Under the pieces are notes generated by a model. That model did no database searches, had not been told where the DNA came from, and saw only the letters and a program-made list of their open reading frames with translations. DNA of 60,373 nt, filler included. It is 6 parts of 6 records of this genome, joined end to end, with 100 filler letters (N's around TTAATTAATTAA, not from the genome) between each part and the next. Parts side by side here need not be neighbours in the genome. Positions count along the whole stretch, not along the records: positions 35,085 to 53,306 come from SRR20825019_217; 5 more parts are not named here. One strand, 5' to 3'. This document shows positions 8,627-60,373 of this stretch, piece after piece. The translations under genes and the position numbers were made by a program. The first letter of the stretch is position 1. Every line of letters starts with the position of its first letter.

Positions 8627-8726
8627 NNNNNNNNNNNNNNNNNNNNNNNNNNNNNNNNNNNNNNNNNNNNTTAATTAATTAANNNNNNNNNNNNNNNNNN
8701 NNNNNNNNNNNNNNNNNNNNNNNNNN
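8627..8726. other. Artificial contig linker (N44-TTAATTAATTAA-N44)
   Basis: The same 100-bp spacer occurs five times; TTAATTAATTAA puts stops in all six frames. Confidence 0.99.
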
Positions 8727-11700
8727 GGACGGAGGGGGACGGTTGAGATCTTAGGTAACGCGGCCACCAACGATGATGATGGGGTAGGCACCACCACCGC
8801 AACAGCAGCAGCATCCTTACTGGATGTGGTAATTGTGGTCTGATGTTGTTGTTGGGCGGTGGGCTCGGAGGCAAGGATGGAGGCCAGTGGGAGGATATTG
8901 CTCTCACAGGCGTCTACAGTCCCACCACCACCCTCCTCTTGCATGATGCCTTTCTGCCCACAAACACCACCCGAGTCGGTAGTGGTATGTGCAGATGCCC
9001 CCCTAAACACGGTGGTATGAATGGGGGAGAGGTCGTAGTGTAGCAGGCAGTAAGGGGCAAAGAGGGGTGCGCTGCAGAACTCAGAGAGGGACTCCACCAA
9101 CACAGAAGTATGCAGGTGGTCCAGATCAGTAGGAACCGTTGCAGATGATGAAGCAGATGATGGAGCATTTGTGAGTCCTCCCCCCTCGGTAGTGAATTTG
9201 GATGATGGGGCTGTCGACGTTGTGGGAGAAGCAGGGGTAGAGACTGACTCTCGAGTTGGCATCTTACTATCACCACTAACATTGTTGTTATTATTTGGAT
9301 GAGCGCAGTCAGTGATAAGATGCCCTGCTGCTAAATCAGCTGCGTGATCGAAGTGTGGATCCGGCAACGTTCCCACGACCGTTGTGGTTGCAACATCACT
9401 ACTACCACTTCCATGGAGGAGCCCTGAGAGGACAATCTTACGCATCCGGGACAGTTTAAGATATGACCTCATCACGGCCTCAGATCGATCTAACATTGAC
9501 ATGGAGGAGGATTGTTGGTGGTGGATGGTATTGATACAGTTGGAGGACCCCTCTAGTAGGTGGGGTAGCATGGCGTACTCCTCCTTGGAGAGGCCGCTAG
9601 AGATGGGGCCGTCGTAAGAGGATAGGGCATGGGTGGTGGGAGGACGAGTGGAGTGTCCCCCGCTACTGTATAGAAGTGACATCGCAGGGGCGGCAGTAAT
9701 GAGGTGGCATATGGTGTCATCGATGGCGTCGGAGCGAGAAAGTTGGGCAGACAACGCCGACAATGCCTCATCATCAACTCCCCCAGTACCGTTGCTACTG
9801 GGTAGTATGAGACCGCCACCATTAGCAGAAGTAGATTTAGCGGGAGAATCGAAGGCCGATGATGATGCACCCTCTCCACCTTCGACGGTTGGGGATCCAG
9901 CGGTAGATTGATCGGATAGGAGAGCGGCCCCACTACCGCCCTGGGGTTGGTGGGGTGGTAGGAGTAGGGAGACGTGATCTACTAGGTCCGAAACGGCCCT
10001 GATGAGAGTAGAGGAGAAGGGGGTAGTAGATGTAGCCGCCTCATTATTATCGTCATTACCACCATCGGCGGGGGGGATGGAGTTCAGGGTGATGGAGCGG
10101 CTGTGCTGCACCTGTTCGAATGCCAACAGGTACGACAACAAGTACGAACTAGAGTGGCCAAGAGAGCTTACGGGGGTAAGGATGGTGGGGGCCAGGAGCT
10201 CCTGGATCGGCTCCAGTAGTGCACCCTCTAATGTCTGAAGGGTCTTTAAAACGGTAGTAGATGTCGATGATGAAGCATAGGGACCCTTGTGGGAACGACG
10301 CAGGGAGCCATTTCCTCCTCCTGTACCATTGATGTGGTGTGTAGTTTGCTTCTTACCTCGGGTGGTGTTGTCGTAGCCTCCAAGATCCGAGGACGACGAC
10401 GATGAGGCGTCATCGGCATCATCATCATTGTTGTTGATGTTCTCCTCGATCAACTGAGAATTGGTAGTGGTATCGGACACATTAAAGTCTAGTACCAGGT
10501 GCAAAGTACGTAGTAGTTGAGATAGAATTACTATGTTGTGCTCCGATGATGATGATGAGGTACCACTATTTCCATTACCTGAGGAAGAGCTGTCAGCCAC
10601 TGTCTGTTGCTGGGGGGTAGGGGCCTTGGGGGCGCCGTTCTTGGAGGTAGTGGATGTCAGTTCCTCGAGGGCCTGACGGTGTCGGGCAGCCTGCTCCCTC
10701 TGCATGGTAATGGCATCAAGCTCCTGACGGAGGGATGACCCATCGAGGACAAGATATACCCTGTATGGGGTGGTGCTGTTTTTGTTGCTATTTTGGACAT
10801 ACAACTTGGATGGATGACGGAATAGAACCCCACTATGATTATTGTTTTTATGAGGGTCATCCCCCTCTCCGTTTCCTAAGAAGCACATAACCTTCAAGGC
10901 ATGATCATTAGGCAGGTGTGCAGTTGGGACCGCATCGACACCATCATCGTGATCACCGCCCACACATCCCAGCCGTGAGGTAAGGGATGATGATACAGGT
11001 AGGTGAATCAGTGGGGAGGAGGACTCAGAAGCACCAGCACCGCTACCCTTCTCCTGTCGGCGATGAGTAGCAGCAACAGGCAGTAATGACGCCGAGGTCG
11101 CAGCATCGCCAAGTAGCGCTACTGCAACACTGTTCAGGGCAGAAGCAGAGGATGATGATGATGGTGAGGCGGTAGGGTTGGTGGTGGAAAGGAGTGCTCG
11201 AGACAACCCACTACGGACTACTTGCTGTAATCTCAGCATGGTTGGAGATGGGGGATGAGGGGAGCTGGTGGAGGGCTGGGTACGATGTAGGATGCTCTGT
11301 GTCAGGCCAATACCGTGAAGCTGTACTACTGGTGTCACCGCCACAATACCGCCATTATCACTACCACTACCTTCACCGCATCGATCCACCGATGCGTAAT
11401 AAATTGTGTTGGTGACAATACTATTATTGCTATTGGATGACGACGTTGCAGTAGTATTATGGTAGTCGTCAGGTGATCCCATGTCAAAGGTAGGGAAGCG
11501 TATCAATGCAGCAGCGTAGCCAAGAAGGTTGGGACCGTGGTTACAGGAGGTGCCCGTATGGTGGTGGTTGGAGAGGGCAGCAGAGACCATATCCAGGCAC
11601 ATCAACTCCGCAGACCCCCGTAGTAGATCAGATACGGACATGTGGGTAGCAGTGTATACCATCATCATCATTGTGTCATTGCTAGCCTTTGTAGTTAATG

Positions 11701-13264
11701 TAGTAGCTGGAGATGCGGTGGGAGGAGTCATGGCAACCGTTGAGGAGGAGGCACCGGATGTTCCACGTCGATGCTGAGGTGCCACCATCACTACGACACC
11801 TTGTCGGATCTGTGCGGAGCCGTTGGTGGCGACAAGTAGGGATGCATGGACAAGGTTTACGACCATGGCTTCGGGGACGAGAGAGGTGGCTGGATGGCGG
11901 ACAAGGGCCAGTGACAGGTGTAGTAGTCGATGCAACAAGGATTCATTCAACGGAGTTGATGAAGATGATGATTTGGTGATGGGATGTGGTGAGGGGGTTA
12001 TTGTTGGGGTAGAGGTGGTAGGAGAAGTAACTCCTTCATTATTCTCTTGGCGGTGTGGCTTTGAGGCGGTAGGGGTTGGGAGTACCACCAAAGTTCGAAT
12101 CATCATCAACACAACCTCCGAGGTGAGGCATAGCGTCTGGGGAGTAAACATTGCCATGGGGGAGGAGGGGGAGTCGATAAGGGCCTGAAGGGCAGCTACT
12201 GCTACCCCTAGTACCGCCTCCACACCAGCATTGTATTGCTGCTGACGCTGCTGATGTTGCTTTTGCTGCTGGCGGAGGTGTTGTTGTTGTTGTTGGGAGA
12301 GAGGAGATGAGGATGATGTTGGTGATGATGATGGGGTTAGCATCCGGTGGGATGGACCTCCAAGAAGTGCAACAGCAAGCAGGAAGGGATGTAACAATTG
12401 GATGGGGGACAATGATGAGGACGATGCACCATCGCCAAGTAGGTTGGACCGCAGGGCACGTACCGCTCTCGATACAACACTAACTGGGTCCTCCCCCTCC
12501 ACAACCCCCACGTCACTTGACAAAGTGTTTTGGTTGTCGTTTTTCGATGACGACGAAGATGTTCCCATTAGGATGCGTAGTAGAGAGTGTATGAGGTGCA
12601 CACGGGGTTGTTGGGCGGGGATGGTAGTCTGGAGGAGGGCATTGAGAACGGACGATACCCCTGATACATTCACCGACCCCGATGGGGATGATGATGATGA
12701 GGCAGTGGTGGTAGGGAGCACTCCCGATGATAGTAGTAGCAGTACCGATGGTTCCCACCCCAACACCTGAGTAGGATCCCACACCCCACCCCAGGCACCA
12801 CTGGCAGCCCCAAAGGCAGCTGTCAACTTATTCATAGTGTTGGTGATGGTCACATCTAGAGCCGCATCGACGACAGCTGGGTTGGTGGACTTGGTGAGGC
12901 TTCTTAGAAGCTTCACCTGGGGACGTGACAGCAACGAGCCACCACCACCTCCAGTTGTGGAGTGCGACGTTGTGGACGTGTTATTATTTGTAGCGGTGGA
13001 AGGACGTGGTGGGAGGGACGATAAGGCCAGCTGAATGTTTTGGAGGTGCATGAGTAGTACCGCACGGTCTCCTGACGATGACTGTGGAGAGGAGGGAGAT
13101 TGAAGGACCTGGTGATGGTGGTGAGTAGCAGACATTGAGGGTGGAACAACAGTCGCATCCGCAGCAGAAGTTGTGGATGTAGTTGTATCAGTAGAAGCAG
13201 GGGCATTGGTAGCAGGGTTAGCTCCACCGCCGAAGAAGGTTCGGAATGACGAGGTAGAGCTCAT
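8727..13264 (-). CDS. Large low-complexity eukaryotic hypothetical protein (>1510 aa, 3' truncated by contig end)
   Basis: Intronless ORF from ATG 13264 running into the linker. Poly-S/T/Q/N/G tracts alternate with Leu/Ala-rich helical segments. No recognisable catalytic motif. Confidence 0.8.
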
Positions 13265-13577: not shown

Positions 13578-16500
13578 CTAATATCCCGGACCTCGTCGTC
13601 GGCTACCACTCATAGGCGTCCTAGGCACCCCATTGCCAATGATAGTACCGGGTGTGGATGCTGCCGATGTACGAGCTAGATACGCAGCCGCAACTCGTTG
13701 TGCGGGGACAGAGTCCTCGAAGGGCGCAAAGACTGCCGATACTAGTTCGGCATCGTAGTTATCAAGGACTTGCCTACGGGTCACCATGGAGGAGGATGCT
13801 GATGAGGACGTCGGCCTTCCACCACCACCTCGACGGGAGGCGGATCCAGGTGATGTGGGTGGGGAGAAGCCGCTCTGGGGGTTGGGGGAGCGGAAGCCGC
13901 GGTCGGAGTAGGGGGAGGCAATGTGGTGGGGGTTGGTGCGGTACTGCTCATCATCACCATCATAATCGTCACCATCGTAATGATTATCATCGTCGGCGGG
14001 GTTGTGTACAATGACCTCCTTACCATGGCTCTTGAGTAGCACTTGTGAGGCCCGTAACCTTGCCCTTTGTGCAAACGGCACACAGAACTCCTCCCACAAA
14101 ATCTTCCCCGTACCCCTCACATCAAGGGTCTCCTTCCACCTTACAAAATGTTCATGGCTTGTAAGGGTAGCACCATGGGTCCACTGGAATAGCTGATCAA
14201 TCTCCTCGTCGGAAAGGGGTCCAGACACGACCGGCCTCAAAGACACCCACGCCCCCCTAAGTCCCTCCAACTCATAAAGGGTGAGGCCATCCAGCATCTT
14301 GTAGGGTTCGGTGGACGCGTACTTTTGTGCTTCCTTGCGGACCACTCTCAGCAGTGCCTCTGTATCCTTGGAGGAGAGGGTAGAGGTGACGCCTCTGACA
14401 GTACTGTTGTCTGCAGAGGGGGCATCGAACATTTCTTGGTCAGCGAGAGCATCATACTCATCCTCCCCCTCATCCTCATTGCCATTATTATCGTTCCCAT
14501 CATCGCTATAGTCATCAGCAATTCGGCCACTCATCTTGCTCCGCCGGGAGGCTTGCTTTTGCTTCTTGAGGTCTTGGATGCGGGCCTTCTTCTTCTCTTC
14601 TAGAAGGCGTCGACGAGTAGCAGGAGACTTCTGGGAGGTGTGGTTGTTGTGAAGGAATGATTGGAAGAGGTTGTACAACGCCTCGGGAGATAATCTACCA
14701 GCAGCACTTGTAAATTGATCCAACTTCGCGAATTGTAGTCGTTGTAGCTCGACTGGATCGCCTGCCTGTTCGGCCTCCTCGGGGGTGAGTAGCCGTGGGT
14801 CGGTACCAACACCACGACCCCTACCGCCCTTTCGTAAGTATGGGAAGTATGTATCGACCACATCCTCAAAGCTCATAGGATCATTCCTGTCAATGAAGTC
14901 TTGGGCCTCCGTCATGGCCACCTGATCCTCGGGGAAAACGCTATTTATAAAATGTAGCACCTCCTCACCCTCCAACTCCCCAGTACCGTCAGCATCAGCC
15001 TTCTTAAACTCGCGTTTTAAGGAATTTAGCTCAGCGGCAGTCAGGGGCTTGACGGGGGCGCGGGGGTCGTTGCGGTAGGAGCGACGACCTGCAGCAGAGG
15101 CAGCCTCGCGTCGAGAGAGTGCACAGTACACAATACCACAGACGGCAGCAATGAGCATGATGAAGCCGATAATGACACCAACAATGGAAGCAGGGAGGAC
15201 GCGATCTTTGGCGAAGGACTGCCACTCGGGTAGGCATGCATCAGGGTTACGGTTTTCGATGTCGCAGTTCTCGGGACAGTAGGCGTTGGGGGTTGGGACG
15301 CACCCATAGTAGTAGCCACTGCAGCCGAGGAAGGACTGCAAGGAGCAGATGCGACTAGGGTTCTCTCGGGCCTGCTTCTGCCACTGCTCGGCAAACACCT
15401 CCACCACGCTATCCGTCTCCCGGTTGACAACAAGATGGAGGGCTGCGACGGACATGGCGAACATGCAAACTGCAAAGACGATCATGACGATGCTGCAGAT
15501 GATGGAGAGTATGGAGAGACGGAAGGCGGCAGCTGAGAAGAGAAGGAGTGCAATAACATACACAAAGATGGCTATGACGAGGAGACCGACAAATAGACCA
15601 GCTCCAAAGACGGTCAGTTGCTCAATGTAGCCTACGAAGAAGGCGACAAGGAGGATAACAGCGACGATGACGAGGAAGCTGGTGACCATCGCCAACACCC
15701 ATGTAGCCTTGTTGCAGGTGGATTCCTCGAAGACGGGCTGGGGGTTGTTCTGAGTCCGAATACACGACACTACAATCGCAGCAACCAGCACAATAGCTGC
15801 CACAAGCGCCATTACGACGACAGCGGCGACGAGTGCCTTTTGGGCATCCTCGTTGGTGAGGTCGGACTCAATGACGGCGTTATACAGACTGATGATGGTG
15901 GAATTCTGGCTGCAGTCCCCACGATCGTCTGAGGTAGCGGATGCGGTGCATGTTCCACAATAGGTGTACTCCACCCCAGTCGACGCCGTACACTTATAAT
16001 TACTGTCCCCACACGTATCACCGGCGGTTTTGAGTAGGATGGTGTAGGTGATGGTTTGTGTCATGGTAGGGGGGCGAATACCGCTACTACCAGACCCCCT
16101 TCGTACTAGGGCAGTGTTGTCGGTAATAGTGGCAGTGACAAGGGTTGTGCGCTGCTTGAGGGTCGAACCTAAGATTTTGGCAGATGGGGACCCCTCTAGG
16201 GTAGATCCGTCGGGCATCGACCACTTCACCGTCACATTATCATTAAACAAAATAAATCTGTGATTTAATGTGAGGGTGGTGATATCGGTGGCGGCGAGGT
16301 AGATGTGGAGGGAAGGGTGGGGACAGTGAGGCGCTGTCATGTCAACGTACACACTAGTAGAAGTTGGAGTAGTAGAGGTACGTGCCACGGCGGTATCCCC
16401 TCCGAATAGTTGGGTAACCATTGCGTCCTTGCATACAGGGCACATCTCAGGGGCTAGCTGATCCTTCATGATGCATTTCTTCTCATTTGTAGGGCGGTAG

Positions 16501-16904
16501 TAATTATCATAGGAGCAACCCTTCGATGGGATGGCATCCACCAATCCTGCAGAGATGTACTGGGACCATTGCACAGCAGTAGCGTCATTGGTGGTAGCGC
16601 AGTTGGGAAGGTTGTATTGATTTCCGCCGACGGGATCACTGTATCCATAGCTATACTCGTCCCCTAGATTACCAACAGCATGGCCGACCTCATGTAGAAG
16701 TAGGAAGGGTAGGTTATCGGAGTTGGTAGTGAGGGAGGCGAAATTGAGACTTCCGGTACCCCCATAGTCCTCCTCGTTGACTAGGACGATAATGATATCC
16801 ATGGCGGGGGCGAAGGATGCGAGGGCCTTAGAGAGCTCATAGCTACAGGAGAGGCGACTAGGCTGTGGTGTACCGAAGGCACATGCAAGATTGTTATTGA
16901 CAGA
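13578..16904 (-). CDS. Membrane protein: peptidase M64 (IgA peptidase-like) domain + beta-rich linker + TM + tetraspanin-like 4TM + EF-hands; 5' truncated
   Basis: The frame stays open upstream of 16802 to the contig end. IIVLVNEEDYGG, HEVGHAVGNLGDEY (16694-16653) and YYRP..CIM...MCPVC are M64-type motifs. About 5 TM segments; Cys-rich loop LQSFLGCSG...C..C...C. EF-hand loops DADGTGELEGEE (14996-14961) and DVRGTGKILWEE. Confidence 0.8.
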   Translation of the reverse strand, partial: SVNNNLACAFGTPQPSRLSCSYELSKALASFAPAMDIIIVLVNEEDYGGTGSLNFASLTTNSDNLPFLLLHEVGHAVGNLGDEYSYGYSDPVGGNQYNLPNCATTNDATAVQWSQYISAGLVDAIPSKGCSYDNYYRPTNEKKCIMKDQLAPEMCPVCKDAMVTQLFGGDTAVARTSTTPTSTSVYVDMTAPHCPHPSLHIYLAATDITTLTLNHRFILFNDNVTVKWSMPDGSTLEGSPSAKILGSTLKQRTTLVTATITDNTALVRRGSGSSGIRPPTMTQTITYTILLKTAGDTCGDSNYKCTASTGVEYTYCGTCTASATSDDRGDCSQNSTIISLYNAVIESDLTNEDAQKALVAAVVVMALVAAIVLVAAIVVSCIRTQNNPQPVFEESTCNKATWVLAMVTSFLVIVAVILLVAFFVGYIEQLTVFGAGLFVGLLVIAIFVYVIALLLFSAAAFRLSILSIICSIVMIVFAVCMFAMSVAALHLVVNRETDSVVEVFAEQWQKQARENPSRICSLQSFLGCSGYYYGCVPTPNAYCPENCDIENRNPDACLPEWQSFAKDRVLPASIVGVIIGFIMLIAAVCGIVYCALSRREAASAAGRRSYRNDPRAPVKPLTAAELNSLKREFKKADADGTGELEGEEVLHFINSVFPEDQVAMTEAQDFIDRNDPMSFEDVVDTYFPYLRKGGRGRGVGTDPRLLTPEEAEQAGDPVELQRLQFAKLDQFTSAAGRLSPEALYNLFQSFLHNNHTSQKSPATRRRLLEEKKKARIQDLKKQKQASRRSKMSGRIADDYSDDGNDNNGNEDEGEDEYDALADQEMFDAPSADNSTVRGVTSTLSSKDTEALLRVVRKEAQKYASTEPYKMLDGLTLYELEGLRGAWVSLRPVVSGPLSDEEIDQLFQWTHGATLTSHEHFVRWKETLDVRGTGKILWEEFCVPFAQRARLRASQVLLKSHGKEVIVHNPADDDNHYDGDDYDGDDEQYRTNPHHIASPYSDRGFRSPNPQSGFSPPTSPGSASRRGGGGRPTSSSASSSMVTRRQVLDNYDAELVSAVFAPFEDSVPAQRVAAAYLARTSAASTPGTIIGNGVPRTPMSGSRRRGPGY

Positions 16905-48791: not shown

Positions 48792-50144
48792 ATGCAATCT
48801 TATTGGCGACTGCACAAATACCCGATACTTTTTGCTGTCGCTTGTATTCTGTTCTACTGGAGTTTTGCATACAACTTGGTCCGTACGGACTTCATTAAGT
48901 TGTTCATGCTCTATGGGGCACTTTTTTACCTTACTTCCAAAATTATCCAGTTCGAAAAATGGAACTTTAAGTTCCTATTGGTCGTTGGAATACTTTTTCG
49001 GTTGGTATTTTTGATTGCCGAACCCAATCTTTCACAGGATTTCTATAGGTTCATTTGGGATGGTGAACTCATCAAAAACGGCATCAACCCGTATTTGTAC
49101 ACACCCGACCAAATTATGGAGCAGGGCACGGTATCATTCCCCAGCATGAAGGAACTGCATGAAGGAATGACCGACCTCAATGCACGTCACTACAGCAATT
49201 ATCCCCCAATCAACCAAGTTCTTTTTGCCATTGCATCAATTTTGGGAGGAGGAAGCGTTTTAGGTTCCACCATTGCCATGCGGTTGATAGTGATTCTTGC
49301 GGATTTAGGTGTGCTTTATTTTGGAAGAAAGCTTTTACAGCACCTGAACAAGGCCAACCATTTGGCATTTTGGTACTTTTTGAATCCATTGGTCATCATC
49401 GAACTCACGGGCAACCTGCATTTTGAAGGTGTAATGCTCTTTTTCTTTGTTTGGGCCCTGTATCTCATTGCCAAAAATAAATGGTTATGGTCAACCCCGA
49501 TATATGCCATTTCCATCATGGTAAAGCTAATGCCCCTGATGTTCCTGCCGCTTTTTGTAAAATACTTCGGGCTAAAAAAGAGTGTTGTTTTTTACGCTTT
49601 GATACTATTGGGGTGCGGGGCTTTGCTGTTTCCTTTTTATTCCTCCGTATTTATCGATAATTATTCGGATACCGTTGGGCTATGGTTCACCAATTTTGAG
49701 TTCAATGCCAGCATATACAATGTCGTTAAAAAGATTGCGGTCACTTATTATGAAGCCAAACCTTGGGAATTGATCGATTCCTATGGTTCAGTAATACAAA
49801 GAGTGGTGGTCGTTATCATTTTGCTGCTTGCTTTCCTTCGGAAAAACCAAAAACTGGAAAGCGTCATCACATCCATAATGTTAGCATTGGCCTGCTATTA
49901 TTTTCTCTCCAGCACCGTGCATCCTTGGTATGTGGTGTTCCTTTTGGGCATTGCCGTGTTTACCGATTACAGGTTCCCATTCGTGTGGTCCTTCGCCGTT
50001 GTTCTGAGTTACTATGCATATTCTAATCCCGATTACAAAGAAAACCTTTGGTTATTGGCCATTGAATACATTTTGGTAATTGGGTTTTTTATTTATGAAA
50101 TAATAGGAAGTAGGCCTAAAAAGTTATATTTCCTCAAAAAGTGA
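48792..50144 (+). CDS. GT-C fold polytopic glycosyltransferase (polyprenol-phosphate-mannose-dependent, GT87-like)
   Basis: LSQDFYRFIWDG, NPY, YPP, LNPL..IE..GN.HFE, K..P, VHPWY; about 11 TMs. Confidence 0.8.
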   Translation: MQSYWRLHKYPILFAVACILFYWSFAYNLVRTDFIKLFMLYGALFYLTSKIIQFEKWNFKFLLVVGILFRLVFLIAEPNLSQDFYRFIWDGELIKNGINPYLYTPDQIMEQGTVSFPSMKELHEGMTDLNARHYSNYPPINQVLFAIASILGGGSVLGSTIAMRLIVILADLGVLYFGRKLLQHLNKANHLAFWYFLNPLVIIELTGNLHFEGVMLFFFVWALYLIAKNKWLWSTPIYAISIMVKLMPLMFLPLFVKYFGLKKSVVFYALILLGCGALLFPFYSSVFIDNYSDTVGLWFTNFEFNASIYNVVKKIAVTYYEAKPWELIDSYGSVIQRVVVVIILLLAFLRKNQKLESVITSIMLALACYYFLSSTVHPWYVVFLLGIAVFTDYRFPFVWSFAVVLSYYAYSNPDYKENLWLLAIEYILVIGFFIYEIIGSRPKKLYFLKK

Positions 50145-50190
50145 CCTCAACTTTAGTACAATTCGAATTAATTTGTACTTTAGCTTCAGA

Positions 50191-50274
50191 ATGAAAGGAT
50201 ACCAGTACATACCATTTACTTTGAGCATCGCTGCTCCTATCAGTCCATTTACTCCCCGTCGTCGTCGCCCGTAA
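50191..50274 (+). CDS. Putative arg-operon leader peptide MKGYQYIPFTLSIAAPISPFTPRRRRP (27 aa)
   Basis: ATG 50191 to TAA 50274 with tandem CGT CGT CGT CGC near the end; 91 bp before the first arg gene; preceded by TACTTTAG (-7-like). Confidence 0.75.
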   Translation: MKGYQYIPFTLSIAAPISPFTPRRRRP

Positions 50275-50365
50275 GGGTGCTTCATATCTATTGGAAATAG
50301 GTGAGTCCATTTCCGCAGAACGACCAAATCTATTTTTTTAATTTTTTACAGAACAATCGCTTGCA

Positions 50366-50980
50366 ATGGAAATTATTGTTGCTAACGAATCACATTTTAA
50401 ATACGCACAGATCATTAGCGATACCATTACCGAATCGGCCAAAGTCCGCGGTACAGGTATTGCCAGACGTACTCCCGAATATATTATAAAACGCCTCCAG
50501 AACGGAAACGCCATCATTGCCTTGGATGGCAATAAATTTGCGGGTTTCTGCTATATCGAGGTCTGGGGAAACAAGGATTTTGTGGCCAACTCCGGTTTGA
50601 TCGTACATCCCGATTACAGAAACCAAGGACTTGCCAAAAAAATCAAAAAGGCAGTTTTTGATCTATCCAGAAAAAAATTCCCTGAAGCCAAAATATTTGG
50701 TATCACCACGGGACTTGCCGTAATGAAAATGAACTACGAACTGGGCTATAAACCTGTTACATTTTCCGAACTTACGGACGATCCCGAATTTTGGAAAGGT
50801 TGTCAGACCTGTAAGAACTTTGATATTCTAACACGCACAGAAAAAAAGATGTGCCTGTGCACTGGCATGCTGTACGACCCCAATACAAAAAAACACGAGC
50901 CTGAAAAACTCAATAAAAAAGCGTTTCAAAGGCTGAAAAGCATTAAGGAACACCTTTTCCTAAAAAAGAAAGATAGTTAA
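50366..50980 (+). CDS. GNAT N-acylglutamate synthase (Bacteroidetes ArgA substitute)
   Basis: SAKVRGTGIARRTPEY, GFCYIE, VANSGLIV, FWKGCQTC..CLCTGMLYDP; first gene of the arg operon. Confidence 0.8.
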   Translation: MEIIVANESHFKYAQIISDTITESAKVRGTGIARRTPEYIIKRLQNGNAIIALDGNKFAGFCYIEVWGNKDFVANSGLIVHPDYRNQGLAKKIKKAVFDLSRKKFPEAKIFGITTGLAVMKMNYELGYKPVTFSELTDDPEFWKGCQTCKNFDILTRTEKKMCLCTGMLYDPNTKKHEPEKLNKKAFQRLKSIKEHLFLKKKDS

Positions 50981-50985
50981 TTTTT

Positions 50986-51094
50986 GGTCCGAGCTATTAT
51001 CCCGAGCACAGTCGAAGGATCAGTCGAACCATTGAGAATACACAAACAGATCCCTGCTGGAGTTTATGCTGAGCAAAGCGAATTGCAGGAACGA
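50986..51094. repeat. Degenerate, apparently nested REP-like palindromic elements
   Basis: GGTCCGAGC[TATTATCCCGAGCACAGTCGAAGGATC]AGTCGAACC and ATCCCTGC[...GCTGAGCAAAGCGAA]TTGCAGGA; the core CGAGC..AGTCGA recurs at 53293-53305. Confidence 0.55.
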
Positions 51095-51109: not shown

Positions 51110-52297
51110 ATGGAAAAATTAGTTTTAGCATATAGTGGTGGATTGGATACGTCATATTGTGCCAAATACCTATCACAAGAAGAAGGTTTTGAAGTGCATG
51201 CCGTAAGTGTGAACACAGGCGGTTTCAGCAAAACTGAAATCGAGGAAATCGAGGAAAAAGCGCTTGCCCTTGGCGCAACCAGCTACACCTCTATTGACGC
51301 CGTTGCAACATTTTATGAGAAAGTGGTAAAATATCTCATCTTCGGAAATGTGCTCCGAAACAACACCTATCCCCTTTCCGTAAGCGCAGAACGAATCGTT
51401 CAGGCTATCGAGATTGTGAACCACGCCAAAAAAATTGGCGCCAAATACATCGCCCATGGGAGCACAGGAGCAGGAAACGATCAGGTTAGGTTCGATATGA
51501 TCTTTCAAATCTTAGCTCCGAACATCAAGATCATCACACCAATAAGAGATAAAAAATTGGCCAGGGAGGAAGAAATCAACTACCTACAACAAAACGGTAT
51601 CGATTACTCTTGGGAAAAAGCCAAATATTCCGTAAACCGAGGATTATGGGGCACGTCCGTGGGAGGCGATGAAACCTTGACTTCTCACCTTTCATTACCA
51701 GAAAGTGCGTACCCGAGCCAATTGGAAAAAGAACTATCCAAAGAGTTGAAGTTGACCTTTAAAAATGGTGAATTGGTTGCATTGGACGGCGAGCAGGACA
51801 CTCCTGTGGCCAACATCGAAAAATTGTCCGCCATTGCATCCAAATACGCCATTGGTAGAGATATCCACGTGGGAGACACGATTATCGGAATCAAAGGACG
51901 GGTCGGTTTTGAAGCCGCGGCCCCATTGATCATTATAAAAGCGCACCATTTGTTGGAAAAACACACCTTGAGCAAATGGCAACAATATCAGAAAGAGCAA
52001 ATGGGCAATTTTTATGGCATGCTATTGCACGAAGGTAACTATTTGGACGAGGTGATGCGAAACATCGAAGCCTTTTTGACCGACACCCAGAAACATGTAT
52101 CAGGCGATGTTTTCGTCACGTTGCACCCCTACCGATTCGACTTGAACGGCATCACTTCACAACACGATTTGATGAACGCTTCCTTTGGAAGTTATGGTGA
52201 AATGAACAAAGGTTGGACCGCTGACGATGCCAAGGGCTTTATCAAAATTTTGTCCAACTCAGGAAAAATAGCCAACCACGTAAACCAAGATTCATGA
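51110..52297 (+). CDS. argG: Argininosuccinate synthase
   Basis: LAYSGGLDTS, HGSTGAGNDQVRF, GIKGR.GFEA. Confidence 0.98.
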   Translation: MEKLVLAYSGGLDTSYCAKYLSQEEGFEVHAVSVNTGGFSKTEIEEIEEKALALGATSYTSIDAVATFYEKVVKYLIFGNVLRNNTYPLSVSAERIVQAIEIVNHAKKIGAKYIAHGSTGAGNDQVRFDMIFQILAPNIKIITPIRDKKLAREEEINYLQQNGIDYSWEKAKYSVNRGLWGTSVGGDETLTSHLSLPESAYPSQLEKELSKELKLTFKNGELVALDGEQDTPVANIEKLSAIASKYAIGRDIHVGDTIIGIKGRVGFEAAAPLIIIKAHHLLEKHTLSKWQQYQKEQMGNFYGMLLHEGNYLDEVMRNIEAFLTDTQKHVSGDVFVTLHPYRFDLNGITSQHDLMNASFGSYGEMNKGWTADDAKGFIKILSNSGKIANHVNQDS

Positions 52298-53268
52298 TCA
52301 AAACAGGAATCATAGGAGGTTCGGGTTACACAGGTGGGGAACTGATCAGACTCTTGCTCAATCATCCCCAAACCGAAATTGACTTTGTTTTCAGCACCAC
52401 GAGAGCTGGTAAGCCGATTACCTCCGCCCACCAGGATTTGCTGGGACAAACAGAATTGAAATTTTCAGGGGAGATAAATCCAAAGGTCGATGTGGTCTTT
52501 CTTTGTTTGGGACACGGCAATTCAACATCGTTTTTGAACGAGAACCAGTTTTCTGCATCAACAAAAATCATTGACCTCAGCAATGATTTCAGGTTACAAG
52601 CGGATTCCAATTTTAAGGGGCAACGATTTATTTATGGCCTTCCCGAATTGAACAAGTCTGCCATACAATCCGCGGAGGCCATTGCCAACCCTGGCTGTTT
52701 TGCTACTGCCATTCAATTGGCGTTGTTGCCTTTGGCAAAGGCAGGTTTATTGAGTGATGACGTCCATATCAATGCCGTTACAGGCAGCACTGGGGCTGGC
52801 GTTGGACTGTCCGACACCTCACATTTTAGCTGGAGGAACAACAACGTTTCATGGTACAAACCTTTTACGCACCAGCATTTGGGCGAAATCGGTGAAAGCT
52901 TGAATTCCTTCGGAAATTCCGTGGGCAAATTGATGTTTTTACCGAATCGAGGCAACTTCACCCGTGGAATTTTGGCCACGGCGTACACCAAATACAACGG
53001 CAACTTGGAGGATGCAAAGAAGCTGTACAACGATTTTTACAAAAACGCTGTATTCACCCACATGTCGGATGAAGAACTGCATCTAAAACAAGTAGTGAAC
53101 ACCAACCAGTGCCACATCCATTTGCACAAGCACAATGATATTCTTTTGATTACATCGGCCATTGATAATTTATTGAAAGGGGCATCGGGACAAGCAGTAC
53201 AAAATATGAACCTAATGTTCGGTTTCCCCGAAACCGAAGGTCTGTTGTTGAAAGCAGGCGTATTTTAA
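52294..53268 (+). CDS. argC: N-acetyl-gamma-glutamyl-phosphate reductase
   Basis: GGSGYTGGEL, IDLS.DFR, YGLPE, IANPGCFAT, DNLLKGASGQA. Confidence 0.98.
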   Translation: MIKTGIIGGSGYTGGELIRLLLNHPQTEIDFVFSTTRAGKPITSAHQDLLGQTELKFSGEINPKVDVVFLCLGHGNSTSFLNENQFSASTKIIDLSNDFRLQADSNFKGQRFIYGLPELNKSAIQSAEAIANPGCFATAIQLALLPLAKAGLLSDDVHINAVTGSTGAGVGLSDTSHFSWRNNNVSWYKPFTHQHLGEIGESLNSFGNSVGKLMFLPNRGNFTRGILATAYTKYNGNLEDAKKLYNDFYKNAVFTHMSDEELHLKQVVNTNQCHIHLHKHNDILLITSAIDNLLKGASGQAVQNMNLMFGFPETEGLLLKAGVF

Positions 53269-53275
53269 AATTACG

Positions 53276-53306
53276 AGGTCGAGCTGTCACATCGAGCGGA
53301 GTCGAG
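53276..53306. repeat. Truncated REP-like element at the contig break
   Basis: GAGGTCGAGCTGTCACATCGAGCGGAGTCGAG, same core as at 51003-51015. Confidence 0.55.
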
Positions 53307-53406
53307 NNNNNNNNNNNNNNNNNNNNNNNNNNNNNNNNNNNNNNNNNNNNTTAATTAATTAANNNNNNNNNNNNNNNNNNNNNNNNNNNNNNNNNNNNNN
53401 NNNNNN
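53307..53406. other. Artificial contig linker
   Basis: N-run/TTAATTAATTAA/N-run. Confidence 0.99.
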
Positions 53407-53449
53407 GGGGGGGGGGGGGGGGGGGGGGGGAATGGGTGATGATGACAGA

Positions 53450-53851
53450 GCACGTACCCATCTGGAACCTCCACGCGTCACTGAGGAGCTGATCTTTCTT
53501 GTACTTCCCGCCCCACATGAACATGTTTTTGGAGTCAACCAGCTTAGCAGTCGCGGCCTTGCGGCACACGGGCAAGGGCACGGAGCCTACACCTGTTGTC
53601 AGAAGCATGCACGCGGCAGCGGACAGCACCAGCTTACCGTGGGGGCCATGTTTTGAGTGGGTGAAACTATGGTGCAGAAAGAGGGCGGAGACAGTCAGGC
53701 ACGCCATTATAACAATGCCGATGATTATTCCTCCGGTGAGGTACTTCATGATCATCTCGCAGTGCACCCGGCGCGCAGTCTGCTTATGGGCGGCGGACGC
53801 CTCGAGTAGGAACGTGTCCTGCCCCTCGGAAGGGTTCGGTTCCTTGAGTGT
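53450..53851 (-). CDS. Exon(s) of a second eukaryotic gene: TM segment followed by a Kelch-like repeat; 3' truncated
   Basis: Acceptor-like ...CTGATaatgtatcAG just above 53851; YLTGGIIIGIVIMACLTVSALFL; MFMWGG......LSDAWRF; exon boundaries uncertain. Confidence 0.5.
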
Positions 53852-54495
53852 CTGATACATTATCAGTCCTTCTCGTTCATATAATTATGCGTGGTGACGC
53901 ATATATAGCCGCACACCGACTGGCTCTGGGCCGGCGGGAGGCTCCGAGTGGCCGGCGGGGACGTCTTGGCGGCCGGTCACTGGACGCGATCCCGTCACTG
54001 GCGGGTGGCTTGGGTTGCCTGGCTGGTCAGGATGGTGGCGGTGCATCGTCAGCCGCGCCGACGCTGGGCCTCACCGGTGGCCGGTGATCGGGCGCAGCCG
54101 CCTCTGGCTCGCAAGGCGGGTGGGTGATCGGCCGGCCGGCCGGGCCGACCGGCGGCCGCGGCGGCGCCGGCCGGGCGGCGCCGCGCAGTGCGGCGTTAGT
54201 CCCGTGCACTGCTGGCCCGAGTGCCGCGAGGAACGGGGCCCGAAATAGCCGGCCAAGTCTGGCGCAACAGTTGAAGTGGCGCGGCAGGGGTGAGTGACAC
54301 GGACCAGGCGGAACGTCTGGACACTGATTGGATCTCAGCGAAACTTGAGGATGATGATCAGTTCCGACTAGGAGGTGATCTATTTCGCAAAATTAGTGTG
54401 ACACTACCACACTGATCAAGAATCACTCATTAGTGGATCCGTTTAATGTGCACTGGTTCCAGTCCGTCTACTTATCACATGAAAACCGTCACTCA

Positions 54496-57400
54496 TCACC
54501 GCTGCTGGAAGCGGGAGGCCAGGTTGGCGACGCCAGCGCCGCTGTCGAAGCCTGGAGGGCGGGCACTGACCGGGGGAGGGGGAGGCTGGTTGGGGTACCT
54601 GCAAAGAAAATCAGATATTCATTGCACTTGGGTCGAGGCGGGATCACTCACGCAGCGCTCACAAAGTTAGCGGGCTTGGATGGCACCGGCGGAGGGGCCG
54701 CCGCAGTATTGAATGCCGTTGGTTTGGCTGGCACGGGTGGCGCACTGTGCTGGGGCGGCGGCGGCGGCTGACCATACTGCTGGGGCAAGGGCGGAGGGAC
54801 CTGGCTGGGAAGCGGGGGCGCGGATGGGCCCGAGAGCCCATAATTCGGTGGAGCAGCGTATCCGACCGCATTCCTCGGGGGAGGAGGCGGAGGTTGGGAA
54901 TACTGCGGGGCCGGATTGTACCCGGCACCAGCGTTCGCCGGAGGAGGAGGCTGCGAATACTGCGAAATGGTCGGACCACGGGTGGCCATGGAGTTGAGCA
55001 CCGGGTTGCCGGCCGGGCGAGCCATGTAGGAACTCCGGAGAGCCGAGGGGATCGCGGGTGCTGGCGGGGCGGTTAGCATGATGGTGAATGACAACAGGCT
55101 TGGCTTATTGGCATACCTGTGTCTTCATCAATGAGACGACTGCGGCCCACGTTGGGCTGGCGATTGCCAAAGGTCATGGAGAACCGTTGCTGGCGCTGAG
55201 CCGAGGCCTGCGTGAAGTCGTTATCATTGCGACGAAGGAGCTACACGACAGAGTCAGACGGCATCAAGGGTGGACCAAGGCGAATCTACGAACCTGTCTG
55301 ATCGCGACGGGGCCGGAGACGCCACAGATGAGGACGGCACACACACTACAGCACACAATGGCCACTGCCACCGCAGCCACGGAGCCGATAGCGATCAGTG
55401 CAATCTGCATGGCGGCCCTGGTCAGCGCGGAATGCCTCTATACAAAGTGAGCCTAACCTCGAATCCGGAGAGGTTGCTACTGGTGTTGTCATCGTCCGAG
55501 TCATTCAGCAGACCCTGGCGGTTCACCACAGCATATGTTGTGAAGTGTGACGTCGATCCTACATAGTCTGTGCGCACCAGGGGTAAGTACAGAGATGGGG
55601 TGGGGCACCTAAAAGGGCTTACTGCTGCCGGACACAGTCATGGCCTTGTCTTCACACTTCCATGCGCCGGTGTCGTCAATATAAGCCATACACATGTTGG
55701 ACTTGAGGCCTTCGAGGCAAGGTCAGCCCCCCGAATTTCTCACATCAAGGCTCCCAACTCACTTTCAGGAATCGACGATCCGTCAAACGACAGCTGCACC
55801 GGGCCGGAGAGGGTCTGCTTTCCGCCATTGGAATTCTCAATAGTGACTTCCATGACAGGGCTGAGGACCTTGGGAGAATCCTCGGACACACCTACAAGTT
55901 CAGTCAAGACACGCCCCGCAGGAGGAAGGGGCACGAGACGAGACACTCACCATAATAGCTCTTGGCCGAGGTGGAGCTGATCACAGAGTCCTGCACCGCA
56001 TCTACGGCCACATTCGATTGCGCTGGCACGGACGTGGTGCCCACTATGACCTGCACGTGCCGCAGTCAGAAGCGTTCCTTAGCTAGTCTACACAAGGGCC
56101 TGTCGGGCGATCATGCCAACACATCCCAACACTGAAGCCGATTCTGACACTCCACCGGGGGCCACTTACACTTCCAAGTGTGCCGCCATTGCTATCTTCA
56201 ACGGTAATGGTGGTGGCAGTGTACTCCTTGATGCCAACGGACTTGCGAACGGGTTTCCTGCATACAGATTTGAGCACAACCGGCACACACCGCGCAGAAT
56301 CACACGCACTTCTTCGAAGGCGGGTCAGTACACGAGCCTTCGGTCGCGCAGGTACCGTCCCAGCAGAGTGTCTCGCCGCTCTCACAGTCACCGTTGCACG
56401 AGTTCTGGTTGTCGACGCACCGTCCTGGACAGATATACACGTGTCAATGCTACACATGAACTCCCGCCCGAGCCACCTACCGCTCTCGCACTGAATCTTG
56501 TTAACAGGGCAACCGTCAAAGGTTGGGCAGGAATCATTCGCACCCACGCAGGTGCCATCATCACAACGAGTGCCAGTGCACGCCGATGCGGTTGGGCAAT
56601 TGGCGGATGCGTCGACGCAGGAGCCGTCCTGTGCACCATCAGCTGACCTGGCCACACAACGTTGCCATCAGCGAACTTACCTCGCAGCGCTTGGGGGTGG
56701 TGCCAGAGCAGTCGCTCTTCTGGGAGGGGAACGTGTACTCGAGAGTGGTGTAGCCGATGGCGCCGTCGGTACTAGTGGACTTGATCTGAACGTGATGGAT
56801 CCGTCAGAACACGCCACGCTGCACACTCGCAGACCAGTCACATCACGCACCTGGAAGTAATAAGTCTTTCCCGGTGTGTAGTTCGTTATGTCCCGAGTGA
56901 GAGTCAAGGTAGAGACATCGGTTACAAGGGCAATCGAGTTGGTGGAGAGGGCGCGGTCGTCAGCTTGGGTCAACGTGAACGTAGTCGCGGTGGTCGTGGA
57001 AACCCCCCACGTGAAGACGGCGGAGCTGGAGGTCAGCTTAAGCTCGAGGGACGGCGGCTCATTGTTGTTTGTCTTGTATGTGGCAACGAGTGCATAATCC
57101 TGCAGTAGCATGAGACCGACTCCAACCTTCTCTAGAAATTTTCTTTTTCTTTACCTGATTGGATCCACTGTTTATCGTGGTCGCAGTTACCTGGACAGTG
57201 TACGTTTGGATACTGGCGTTCTCAATGAGGACCTAACCGCTAGTCAGCCCAAGCCCCAAGCCCCAACTCCACTCTGCCCACACCTGTTCATTGTTGTTCA
57301 GTTGGTCCGCAGCCGTCAGATGATTACCACGCACGGTGGTGCCATCCTGAGCACCGCGTCAGCTCCATCTTTGATTCAGAAACAAGCACGCACCGCAGCA

Positions 57401-60266
57401 ACCACCACTAGATCAAGGTCATTCACCAGCGCCTTGCTGGAACTGACGGACGCCGCAGGATCATTCCACACCAGGGTCACCTCCAGCAGACCGACTGAAG
57501 ATGGCCTGATCGTAAACGTCTCCGTCTGGCCCTGTGCGATCGTTTTCTCCGTCTTGCTGTCGGCTGCGGAAACACCAATGTCAGCATTCCATCGAATCAA
57601 AACTAGTCGAAGTCCAAGCACTTACTAAGCGACAGGATCTCCAATGCAAATGGTGAGGATGATGCCAGGGGGATAACCCGGTCCAACTCCATGCGGCCAT
57701 ACCCCTGCTCGTATGAGAAAGGCTTGCCGGAGTTGCTGGTGATGGTGGTCAACCGCTTTGTCGAGTGCAGAAGCATGGCCTTGACCAAAGCCGACGAGGG
57801 TGTGAAGCCATCAGCGGAGGTCTTCCTAGCGGTCGGATACCAACCATCCTGCCATTCCCTTTTCAGTCACGCGACAACTCTGAATAGACCACAGCCACGG
57901 CAACAATACCTTGAAATACTGCTGCACTAGGAGCGCGGTACCGGCGGCGACAGGCGTTGCCATCGAGGTTCCGGACATCCCTGTGAATCCGCACGATTCA
58001 CCCACCACTCTGCATTGACCAACGTCAGAGACACACCCCTCACCCCGCGTGCAGCCGCTCACCCATTGGTGGATGCTGACGTGATACTCCAGCCCGGCGC
58101 CACCAGGTCGGGCTTAATACGATCATCTCCGGACGGGCCCTGGCTAGAAAAGGAGGCCAAAGTTTCCCGGATGCTTTGGGTGGCCCCTGTAGCGCCGACA
58201 ATCTGCGTCATCCTGTCAACAATGGTGCCCTTTCAGGGATTGGAGCATCCGGCTTACTAATGCGTTCTTCGCGTTGTTGCCGCAGCTGCGGTCACCGCAA
58301 CTGCCGTCGTTGCCCGCGGCGAAGAGAATGAGGAAGTCCTTGTTGCTGTAGCTGAACTGGTCTATGTCCTGGTCGCGAGAGCCGTACTGCGTACATGATA
58401 GCCTGAAGCACTCCCTAAAATCTACGTCGGTGGTCGGAAACAAAAAATACGATCGGTCCAACTCACGTGGAACCAGTACAGACCGGGCCCCAGCTGTTAT
58501 TGTGGACGGTGGCCGATTTGGCATAAGCGTAGTTGAAGAAATTGTTAACCAGGTCGCCTGGGGATTGTCAGTCGTGCAATCTCACAAGGTATTGAAGAAA
58601 ATACCTGGCACTGAGAAGCCGCCAGATTTATACAGATCCTGGATGAAGAGCTTCGCGTCATAGGCCATGCCCTTCTCCTTCCAGCTGCTGGAGGTGGTGG
58701 CGCACGATTCACACTTGCCAGCAATCGTGCCAGCGACATGGGTGCCATGGCCATGGTCATCCATTACCTCTGAGGCCGTCGTTGTGGAGGAGGAGCGGAA
58801 CGCAATGCCGACCACCTGCAGCAGGGGGTTACTTCTCCGGACGTGCCCCCAATCGGGATGGTAGGGATATGCTCACCTTCCGGTTGGCCGACGAAAAGGT
58901 TGTGGTTCGGGTGGAGTCCCAGAACATGCAGTGGTCGTAGTCCAGCCCAGTGTCTCCAACACCAGCCACAAGCCCTGGTGAGAAACACCTCGTTGGCCCA
59001 TACCGCCCGTTCTGCATTTGCACTCTTACCGGCTCCAGTGATGCCGTTGTTCCACAAAGGCGTGTAACCAGAGACGTCACCGCCAGATTGGGTGATCCAG
59101 GCAGCGTTCTCATTCTTAAGAGCAACAGGGGCTGTACGGCAGTCAGAAAATTATCGATTGCTCGTCACCACACCACTTGAATCCAACATTGGCCAAATGG
59201 CACGCCCCACCCCGCGCGAGCTAAAGGTCCGACCCCAACAGTTTGGTCCAAGATTGATCCATCTCCACCTACCAGGAACATCAACGAACTCCACCTCGGC
59301 CTTCCCAGCCAGAATATTCATCACAAAATCGACGTGGCTTTTCTTTGCGGTCACGATCACACGGCGGTTCGAAGGCGCGTGGGACGCAACTCCTCCCTCC
59401 ATCCCGGCAGAGCTCATGGCGGATCTAGTTCAACCATTAGAACGTGCACGCTTTCCCCGCCAGTACGCTTACGTAATATCTGAGAGCCAAGATGTTGCAA
59501 GGGTTTCGGCATGGGTACGCTGGCTGGATGGGTCATCGCCGTACACGAGGTTTGCATACACATCCTGCGTAGGTTCCTCCAAGCCGGACACTGGTATCCA
59601 ATAAAAATACAAAAGAGGTGAAAAAAAGGGGGGGAAATTGAATAAAGCATAAAAAAATGATGATGATATCAAAAGCAATGATTGAGGGTTTGAACCTGGT
59701 CAGAGCCGCAATAGTACAAGCAGTGCCATGCGAGCCTACCAGCATCATCGCCTTGTGCTCGCATTTGGTTGACTTCCACCTGGGAGAGAGGAGGCAAAGT
59801 TTCAATGCCGAGGCGCTTAGCAGAGGGGGCGTAGTACACGACCGCCCGGACCTGCACAAACAAAAAACACCGTCCCCGTCAGTATCACTCGGCCCCGCCA
59901 ACAGCACCAGACGGCCCCACCAATTCAGAAGTCCGCACTGCGTCGGCCTTGGAGGGAGTCATGAACACCACGTACGAGCGAGAAGGGACATACGACCCCA
60001 GCTTGATCGCTGCAACGTTGGTTAGTCAGCCAGTACCAAGCATAGCGCCCATCGCAACCACCCACCATGGCGGGTCTCCACGGCACGGCGGCCGTCATCA
60101 TCCACACCCGCACTGAACTGCACCAAGTACGTACGCGCAGTGTCGTCTGCATGCACTAGAGTCAGGTGGAACGGCAGTGCCTCGCGGGCGAAGCAGCTAC
60201 TCACCAGCGGCGTTGGAGAACACGTGCATGCCCGTCTCCAGCTGCTCGGGGCGGAACCGTCCTGCC
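54496..60266 (-). CDS. Multi-exon type I membrane subtilase: prodomain, S8 (KP-43/TagC-like) catalytic domain, jelly-roll, FN3-like, Cys-rich repeats, GPS-like motif, TM, Pro-rich tail; 5' truncated
   Basis: Triad GDTGLD (~58953), HGHGTHVAG (~58745), GTSMATP (~57965); oxyanion AAGNDG; FSSQGP...[25 protein letters not shown]. More than a dozen GT-AG introns of ~45-70 nt, most with CTRAC branch sites, read by hand. Last exon ends [12 protein letters not shown] at 54496. Not every junction was checked. Confidence 0.82.
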
Positions 60267-60373
60267 CTACACCGGCCGGTTAGCACATCACCCTCGAAAC
60301 GAACTGGTGTTTTGTTTTCTTTTTCTTTTTCTTTTTCTTTTTCCAGAGAGAGAAGGGGGGGGGGGGGGGGGTT

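Follow-up and report, generated by a model that had tools for sequence, protein, structure and literature searches.

The DNA examined here, referred to below as the window, is a whole stretch of 60,373 nucleotides (nt), to which all coordinates apply. On its plus strand it carries the beginning of an arginine operon, in which a gene for a GNAT acetyltransferase is followed by argG and argC. Directly upstream of the GNAT gene lies a short open reading frame (ORF) with four tandem arginine (Arg) codons just before its stop. A sequence-only reading of the window had proposed that this ORF encodes an unannotated leader peptide through which the operon senses charged transfer RNA (tRNA) for arginine. 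A comparison across the Flavobacteriaceae now places the ORF within a conserved leader that also contains two RNA hairpins, P1 and P2, separated by a spacer of nearly constant length. The GNAT protein of the window is 96% identical to Allomuricauda/Flagellimonas proteins, some of which carry the source name N-acetylglutamate synthase-like, and on account of this identity the source organism is taken to be a member of the Flavobacteriaceae. The locus comprises the following features.

50176-50183, plus strand: -7-type promoter box TACTTTAG, with one mismatch (the third T) to the Bacteroidetes consensus TAnnTTTG
50191-50274, plus strand: leader ORF as read from the sequence, 27 sense codons plus TAA, with the product MKGYQYIPFTLSIAAPISPFTPRRRRP
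50223-50236, plus strand: hairpin P0, GAGCA-UCGC-UGCUC, a predicted fold within the ORF
50257-50268, plus strand: four tandem Arg codons, CGT CGT CGT CGC, from the sequence
50266-50279, plus strand: hairpin P1, CGCCC-GUAA-GGGUG, from the predicted fold and the alignment
50272-50274, plus strand: stop codon TAA of the leader ORF, from the sequence
50280-50292, plus strand: P1-P2 spacer of 13 nt, U-rich, G-poor and single-stranded according to the alignment
50293-50314, plus strand: hairpin P2, GGAAAU-A-GG UGAGU CC AUUUCC, with the top AGGUGNGUCC, from RNAalifold
50315-50365, plus strand: G-poor A/U/C stretch of 51 nt before the GNAT gene, with T runs at 50333-50339 and 50342-50347
50366-50980, plus strand: GNAT acetyltransferase, first gene of the arg operon (Pfam Acetyltransf_1, Acetyltransf_7)
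51110-52297, plus strand: argG, argininosuccinate synthase (Pfam Arginosuc_synth, E 1e-44)
52294-53268, plus strand: argC, of the N-acetyl-gamma-glutamyl-phosphate reductase type (Pfam Semialdhyde_dh, Semialdhyde_dhC_1)

Re-reading the sequence agreed with the ORF as first described, including its length of 27 codons and the confinement of its Arg residues to the tandem CGT CGT CGT CGC, which is followed by a single proline (Pro) codon, CCG, and TAA. The -7-like motif noticed earlier corresponds to the box listed above and ends 7 nt before the ATG. The distance of 91 nt between the leader stop and the GNAT ATG (50366) was reproduced, and the GNAT-argG-argC assignment is backed by Pfam. The leader had been called C-rich and G-poor, which fits the measured composition of the ORF body (C 0.29, G 0.16) and of its last 39 nt (C 0.44, G 0.18). 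Its unannotated status was borne out as well: no family among the NCBIfam leader-peptide models matched any of four tested peptides at E values up to 10, and the exact sequences of three tested peptides, that of the window included, are absent from a collection of 15 billion proteins. Judged on the window alone, the Arg run is unusual only to a limited degree. Four consecutive CGN triplets occur at 3 sites against 0.43 expected, the other two lying in an unrelated contig past 53306, and a few other small ORFs of the window also hold runs of at least four Arg codons. It is the comparative evidence that gives the ORF its significance.

For this comparison, a search alignment of 13 GNAT proteins obtained from database matches was used in one scan of a species-representative genome collection. 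At least 599 GNAT loci were confirmed, and the best 80 of them (L001-L080), all from Flavobacteriaceae, were compared. They show 64-96% identity in GNAT and represent about 30 named genera of the family together with many metagenome-assembled genomes. Three or more tandem Arg codons are present within 450 nt upstream of GNAT in 51 of the 80 loci. An alignment of the window and 75 loci (A3), to which all counts over 76 sequences refer, served to build a covariance model. In the window this model recognizes one copy of the element, at 50248-50339 (84 bits, E 7e-23; runner-up 13 bits), and exactly one copy is found in 76 of the 80 loci, always directly upstream of GNAT. Locus L028, which was outside the training set, is matched at 38 bits. 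Two of the four loci without a match, L036 and L071, have no upstream DNA; in the other two, L047 and L074, inspection by eye revealed an Arg-rich mini-ORF and a P1-like GC hairpin upstream of GNAT, and no P2.

The alignment across the family that had been proposed as a check showed that the Arg run is kept in frame. The Arg frame is stop-free over the 24 codons that end at the CGC of P1 in 74 of the 76 sequences, the two exceptions (L057 and L059) being shorter ORFs, while over the same span the other plus frames are open in 22 and 11 sequences and the minus frames in 19, 36 and 7. Between two and five Arg codons are found among the last eight codons of all 76 sequences (mean 3.6), compared with an Arg content of 3.8% in the genes of the window, and a tandem run of at least two ends at the P1 CGC in 69. 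In codon choice, CGC (122) and CGT (105) are far ahead of AGG (15), AGA (13), CGG (2) and CGA (2) over 62 ORFs, whereas AGA, at 16.5 per thousand compared with 6.1 (CGT) and 4.2 (CGC), is the commonest Arg codon in 12 genes of the window. Among relatives the Arg codons interchange synonymously (CGT to CGC), and over its N-terminal two thirds the peptide is free to diverge. As judged by eye from the peptides, lysine never replaces Arg in the conserved C-terminal motif, although the genome is AT-rich.

An ORF that begins with a start codon and ends in R-R-P-stop or similar is present in 62 of the 76 sequences, and its stop (TAA in 50, TAG in 12) lies inside the loop of P1. One variant, L035, has a peptide ending in M-R-R-F-F-P-R-T with the stop still within the loop. 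The stop falls outside the loop in the remaining 14 sequences, most of which read on; several of these ORFs pass through P1 for a few codons (RRPLGV-stop, RRLVRV-stop) and terminate soon past the hairpin. These patterns of constraint indicate that the leader ORF is not a chance ORF and that it is apparently translated under coding constraint. Antisense ORFs over the leader (within 50124-50327, minus strand; one of them at 50124-50285), which show an apparent Arg run CGA CGA CGA CGG, were also considered. The run is a by-product of the reverse complement of the CGY repeat, and these ORFs were dismissed in view of the low openness of the minus frames given above and of G-U pairs that favour the plus strand.

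The RNA element overlaps the end of the ORF. In the window the last Arg codon and the first bases of the Pro codon make up the 5' arm of P1, and the hairpin loop contains the stop. P1 is paired in 88.6% of cells across the alignment and varies little; in L035 and L045 the stem becomes CGCAC/GUGCG, and the last residue changes from Pro to Thr. P2, as predicted by RNAalifold, is paired in 95.7% of cells, and seven of its eight pairs show changes on both sides. Taken jointly, the two hairpins pair in 93% of cells with double changes at eight pairs, compared with 24-61% of cells paired in slid controls, and the observed values were reached by none of 500 shuffles. The alignment thus backs both P1 and P2 by covariation, and the G-U pairs place the structure on the plus strand. 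The spacer between them always measures 11-14 nt, and 12-13 nt in 68 of the 76 sequences; it contains 0.56 U and 0.06 G, and 70 sequences have U at its end and 59 have G directly after it. Such a spacing with a U/G end would also suit a hairpin-stabilised pause site, according to the consensus that we assume for such sites. The sequence-only reading had reported a weak hairpin at about 50283-50305; there is indeed a hairpin at this place, and the interval as given covers only half of the conserved P2 (50293-50314). P1 (50266-50279) and the P1-spacer-P2 element, the most unusual part of the leader, were not part of that reading.

In P2 the lower stem covaries freely, and the top, AGGUGNGUCC, hardly varies at all. 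A near-invariant top on such a stem is typical of a recognition element, and the spacing between the hairpins is fixed with no alternative pairing to explain the element. One may therefore consider that P1-spacer-P2 is mainly a binding site for a protein or small molecule, as in a riboswitch or a PyrR/TRAP-like system, with the ORF as a secondary feature. This appears improbable, given that the coding signal and Arg enrichment of the ORF are conserved as strongly as the RNA, that neither an expression platform nor a matching RNA family is visible, and that L047 and L074 keep the mini-ORF and the P1-like hairpin while lacking P2. The top of P2 (50299-50308) is also purine-rich and resembles a Shine-Dalgarno (SD) sequence. 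Bacteroidetes ribosomes sequester their anti-SD sequence, according to the available part of one report (PMC13000453). No ribosomal RNA was found in the window.

A search of the whole window against Rfam 15 gave no match at gathering score. With E values up to 10, the region 49900-50700 yielded two chance-level matches only, neither on the leader RNA: one at 50155-50184 on the minus strand and one at 50622-50700 inside GNAT. A likeness of the three hairpins to tRNA or transfer-messenger RNA was dropped after ARAGORN found nothing in the window, and so was the idea that the UGA in the P2 loop acts as a second in-frame stop, its distance from the leader stop varying from 23 to 27 nt and the loop base varying too. 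A hairpin at the position of P0 is predicted in most loci, with stems that differ by lineage (GGGC/GCCC, GUUAAUU/AAUUAAC and others), a mean z score of -1.24 and z below -1 in 42 of the 76 sequences. P0 is probably real, on evidence weaker than that for P1 and P2.

The element was then considered as a transcription terminator. In agreement with the sequence-only reading, the leader has no canonical terminator: no terminator-like site was detected in 49900-50700. The simplest alternative is nevertheless that P1 and its U-rich spacer form a small intrinsic terminator, in which a stalled ribosome antiterminates by directly occluding the 5' arm of the stem, a scheme that requires no alternative RNA structure. 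P1 is GC-rich and a U-rich tract follows it. Under a lenient rule of our own, P1 and spacer look terminator-like in 29 of the 76 sequences, always at P1, and L033 (an 8-base-pair stem, then UUUUAUUUUUU) and L065 (a stem of six GC pairs, then UGUUUUAUUUUUU) are fully canonical in appearance, as is L058. The family does possess classic leader-peptide terminators, since those of hisG and ilvE in Flavobacterium psychrophilum are described in the accessible part of PMC9723704. Yet the other 47 sequences fail even the lenient rule, among them the window, whose spacer CUUCAUAUCUAUU has only 4 U in its first 9 nt. Geometry adds a further objection. When the polymerase reaches the end of the spacer, a following ribosome should have arrived at the Arg codons at most, if the usual spacing between RNA polymerase and ribosome is assumed; P1 would consequently be blocked by fast and stalled ribosomes alike, whereas a ribosome that lags behind would leave it free in both cases. 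The scheme also gives P2 no role, and a P1 terminator is on balance an unlikely read-out.

Folding of alternative structures, suggested at the outset, did not reveal a switch: RNAalifold applied to 28 full leaders gave P1 and P2 only, and no antiterminator or mutually exclusive pairing. Individual candidates fared no better. A hairpin between the spacer and the 5' arm of P2 is paired in 56% of cells, which does not exceed the slid controls. A closing helix GUCGU/ACGAC between the Arg codons and 50321-50325 can form in the window, L002, L008 and L019, and was rejected because it is absent in the close relatives L001, L003 and L004. Pairing between the 3' arm of P2 and the GNAT start (AUGGAAAU) can form in the window but was rejected, as the GNAT start shows no covariation with P2.

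The last observation also bears on translational attenuation of the erm or rbfL type, in which a stalled ribosome would refold the leader and thereby free or block the GNAT start. There are precedents for its ingredients: rbfL of Staphylococcus aureus senses arginine by Arg codons and acts on translation, as far as the accessible part of PMC13009471 describes it, and the available part of PMC6847099 reports that initiation in Bacteroidetes is tuned by messenger RNA (mRNA) structure. In the present leader, P2 ends 51 nt short of the GNAT AUG and its arms do not covary with the start. When the ribosome-covered bases (first 24 nt) were blocked in 72 sequences, the predicted accessibility of the GNAT start was 0.497 against 0.494 and P2 was unchanged. 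Translational attenuation is hence the least credible explanation, and a very remote one.

The promoter defines the 5' end of the element and divides the leaders into two forms. The exact box TAnnTTTG is present in 16 of the 30 sequences of class 1, the single-ORF form (the window, L001-L027, L029 and L030), 117-126 nt before the P2 core, which places it 7 nt ahead of the ATG; in the window and its four closest relatives the corresponding sequence is TAC(T/A)TTAG. In Flavobacterium johnsoniae, transcription starts 4-5 nt past a -7 element of the TAnnTTTG type, according to the available part of PMC6847099; by analogy the transcript of the window is predicted to start near 50188, with a 5' untranslated region of about 3 nt. 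A conserved block some 45 nt ahead of the -7 box was examined as an operator and turned out to code for the C-terminus of the product of the GT87-like gene upstream.

Class 2, the two-ORF form, is found in Yeosuana, Tamlana, Algibacter, Polaribacter, Formosa, Olleya, Mariniflexile and others. Here the -7 box is located about 242-257 nt before P2, and about 4 nt after it begins an additional ORF1 of the pattern M..KNKIR...RRR[FCS]-stop, which likewise ends in an Arg run and lies about 220-260 nt upstream of GNAT (L033, L034, L040, L042, L046, L049, L050, L052-L056, L062, L064, L065, L069, L072 and others). ORF2, next to P1, is open for 30-31 codons from ATG, GTG or TTG. Two Arg-rich ORFs in series before the same operon strengthen the arginine-sensing interpretation. 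The A-rich 5' portion of ORF1 may form a helix with the U-rich tract that precedes ORF2. This candidate pairs in 83% of cells, compared with 45-63% in slid controls; it shows almost no covariation, and RNAalifold predicts nothing there.

From this combined evidence the element is very probably an arginine-responsive regulatory leader ORF, and the first reading of an Arg-tRNA-sensing leader is supported; we infer translation, stalling, the direction of the response and the read-out factor. The mechanism that we favour, with a probability of about 0.5, is that the translated ORF ties the expression of the arg operon to the charging of tRNA-Arg, preferably with a Rho-type read-out. The Rho part taken by itself is tentative, and it is considerably less likely than the sensing function. 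The transcript would start about 3 nt before the leader AUG. When arginine is plentiful, the ribosome would pass the Arg codons, terminate in or just after P1 and depart; P1 would then fold beside P2, with the C-rich 3' portion of the ORF and the G-poor RNA that follows it left exposed, and the transcript would be lost before GNAT or early within it. The favoured route of this loss would be Rho-dependent termination resembling that of tna or speF, with endonuclease cleavage in the U-rich spacer as a close second. When arginine is scarce, the ribosome would stall on the CGY codons and cover the C-rich segment together with the 5' arm of P1. The hairpin would stay unfolded, the Rho-loading or cleavage site would be masked, and the operon would be transcribed and kept. 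Since the stop sits in or just after P1, only P1 would be within reach of a stalled ribosome; P2 and everything downstream lie beyond it, so that P1 folding and ribosome occupancy would be the only variables.

The composition of the leader is compatible with such a site. Across the sequences the last 39 nt of the ORF contain 0.38 C and 0.19 G, and the Arg codons precede the stop by 1-4 codons and adjoin C-rich, G-poor RNA, although composition alone does not define a Rho site. The stretch before GNAT contains 0.20 C and 0.10 G in the window and on average 0.178 C and 0.058 G in 72 sequences; its sequence is not conserved, and a T run of at least five is present in 39 of the 72.

Several points weigh against this mechanism. 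The background value of about 0.156 G in other 5' regions, with which the G-poor stretch would be compared, was corrected by hand, the control having been contaminated by GNAT leaders, and a G-poor stretch is also expected of an SD-less initiation region in Bacteroidetes. Rho dependence cannot be read from the sequence, and the 91 nt between the leader stop and GNAT are short for a Rho termination zone. A simple Rho model leaves the fixed spacer of 12-13 nt unexplained, and the invariant top of P2 is accounted for by none of the Rho, terminator and cleavage models. To these points are added the lack of an antiterminator fold described above and the fact that the leader as a whole folds no better than shuffled sequences (z +0.69), which means that the signal of the leader resides in conservation rather than in folding energy.

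The cleavage route can also be formulated as a purely post-transcriptional read-out, in which folding of P1 would expose the spacer to an endonuclease and the mRNA would decay, whereas a stalled ribosome would protect this site or, alternatively, stabilise the whole mRNA from its 5' end. The fixed length of the spacer and its U-rich, G-poor composition suit this idea, as does the position of the leader ORF at the very start of the transcript. With an Arg codon in the A site, a ribosome would extend to the 3' edge of P1, by the spacer. For the speF mRNA of Salmonella, sensitivity to RNase G is determined by ribosome pausing on the Arg codons of orf34, according to the accessible part of PMC6386406. 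No cleavage site can be identified in the sequence and the conserved P2 loop is still unexplained, which makes decay as the sole read-out rather unlikely, somewhat more so than a P1 terminator.

It is also conceivable that P1-spacer-P2 represents a new expression platform, a static pair of hairpins in which P1 would be switched by ribosome occupancy and P2 would recruit a specific partner, which could be a factor for termination or pausing, an RNase or even arginine. We regard this as a speculative proposal, a little less likely than a Rho read-out. If it were true, Flavobacteriaceae would possess a dual sensor, in which the Arg codons report on the charging of tRNA-Arg and P2 receives a second input. 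Such a sensor would supersede the ArgR paradigm of arginine synthesis within the family, and the lineages with tandem Arg-codon ORFs would have a two-stage version.

The best-known systems of comparison are the trp, his, leu and thr attenuators, which likewise have a short 5' leader ORF rich in codons for the amino acid of their own operon and a stalled ribosome that overlaps an RNA hairpin. Here, in contrast to the trp/his type, the amino acid is arginine, the stop codon is located in the loop of the first hairpin and a second hairpin with an invariant loop comes next; the window has no GC hairpin with a U run before the first gene, and no antiterminator was found. The element would thus work like a leader-peptide attenuator that misses two classical hallmarks, the terminator and the antiterminator. 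A further likeness exists to tnaC-tnaA of Escherichia coli, where a ribosome held at the end of an ORF ending in Arg-Pro-stop is thought to mask an adjacent Rho site. In that case free tryptophan is sensed via the nascent peptide and a catabolic operon is induced, whereas here the signal is most likely uncharged tRNA-Arg. Arrest at the Pro-stop is disfavoured because the stop lies outside the P1 loop in 14 of the 76 sequences, most of which read on past the Pro codon. The fungal arginine attenuator peptide, encoded by the upstream ORF of arg-2/CPA1, likewise regulates a gene of arginine synthesis by means of ribosomes that stall at the stop; it differs in being eukaryotic, in sensing free arginine via the nascent chain with no Arg-codon run, and in blocking scanning.

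Sensing by Arg codons has bacterial precedents. The available part of PMC6386406 describes that the speF leader ORF orf34 of Salmonella contains two consecutive Arg codons, that its translation counteracts Rho and that pausing at these codons alters the folding of the mRNA and its sensitivity to RNase G. As proposed here, ribosomes that pause at consecutive Arg codons of an upstream ORF register a shortage of arginine, but speF encodes ornithine decarboxylase, its leader is long and the two Arg codons lie in the middle of the ORF; no likeness of sequence or structure to the present leader was seen (no Rfam match). In S. aureus, the rbfL leader peptide also senses arginine limitation through Arg codons, with the differences, as given in the accessible part of PMC13009471, that the codons are the rare AGA/AGG, that starvation causes repression and that a biofilm regulator is controlled. 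Neither of the two controls arginine synthesis. Within the family, the accessible part of PMC9723704 assigns clear terminators to the hisG and ilvE leaders of F. psychrophilum and lists no arg leader, and argG occurs in none of the nine supplementary files of that study that were searched.

Arginine synthesis is the textbook case of control by the ArgR repressor, and to our knowledge arginine is absent from the classical list of pathways controlled by attenuators. No argR gene or Arg_repressor domain was found among the 41 ORFs of the window that were scanned, which at 60 kilobases says little about the genome. The enterobacterial ARG-box consensus, which may not be that of the host, gave no site with up to three mismatches in 50100-50400, and its 18 sites across the window, compared with 16.5 expected, are at chance level. 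A search of full-text literature, in which few subscription journals were covered, returned no arginine leader peptide for a bacterial arg operon and no such RNA motif. An Arg-codon leader ORF distributed over about 30 named genera of Flavobacteriaceae would add arginine to the list of attenuated pathways, and an architecture devoid of a terminator/antiterminator switch could show how stalling is read out in SD-less Bacteroidetes, be it by Rho, pausing or RNA decay. The analysis further provides a compact and testable RNA element of about 190 nt, together with a covariance model that can be used to annotate genomes in which the leader ORF stays unannotated.

Downstream of argC the operon breaks off at about 53306, where the contig ends and similarity to relatives stops, and an N/TTAATTAATTAA/N linker (53307-53406) joins the arg contig to an unrelated GC-rich contig. 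Past the linker, up to 60373, a poly-G run is found and GC rises from about 0.42 to 0.53-0.67; the region 53307-60373 contains no long ORFs, and its sole Pfam match is a weak Kelch at 53351-53860 on the minus strand. Elsewhere in the window, a 1074-amino-acid ORF (13578-16802, minus strand) gives an odd mixture of weak Pfam matches (Peptidase_M64, Tetraspanin, EF-hand), and its neighbours are very large (8675-13264, 1529 amino acids and without a Pfam match; 1-8601, 2867 amino acids and open-ended). The gap between GNAT and argG measures 129 nt in the window compared with 74 nt in L002. A motif GAGC-N8-CGAGC-N2-AGTCGA is repeated after GNAT (50991-51015) and after argC (53281-53305), with 2 sites against 0.02 expected for a pattern that was itself derived from these two sites.

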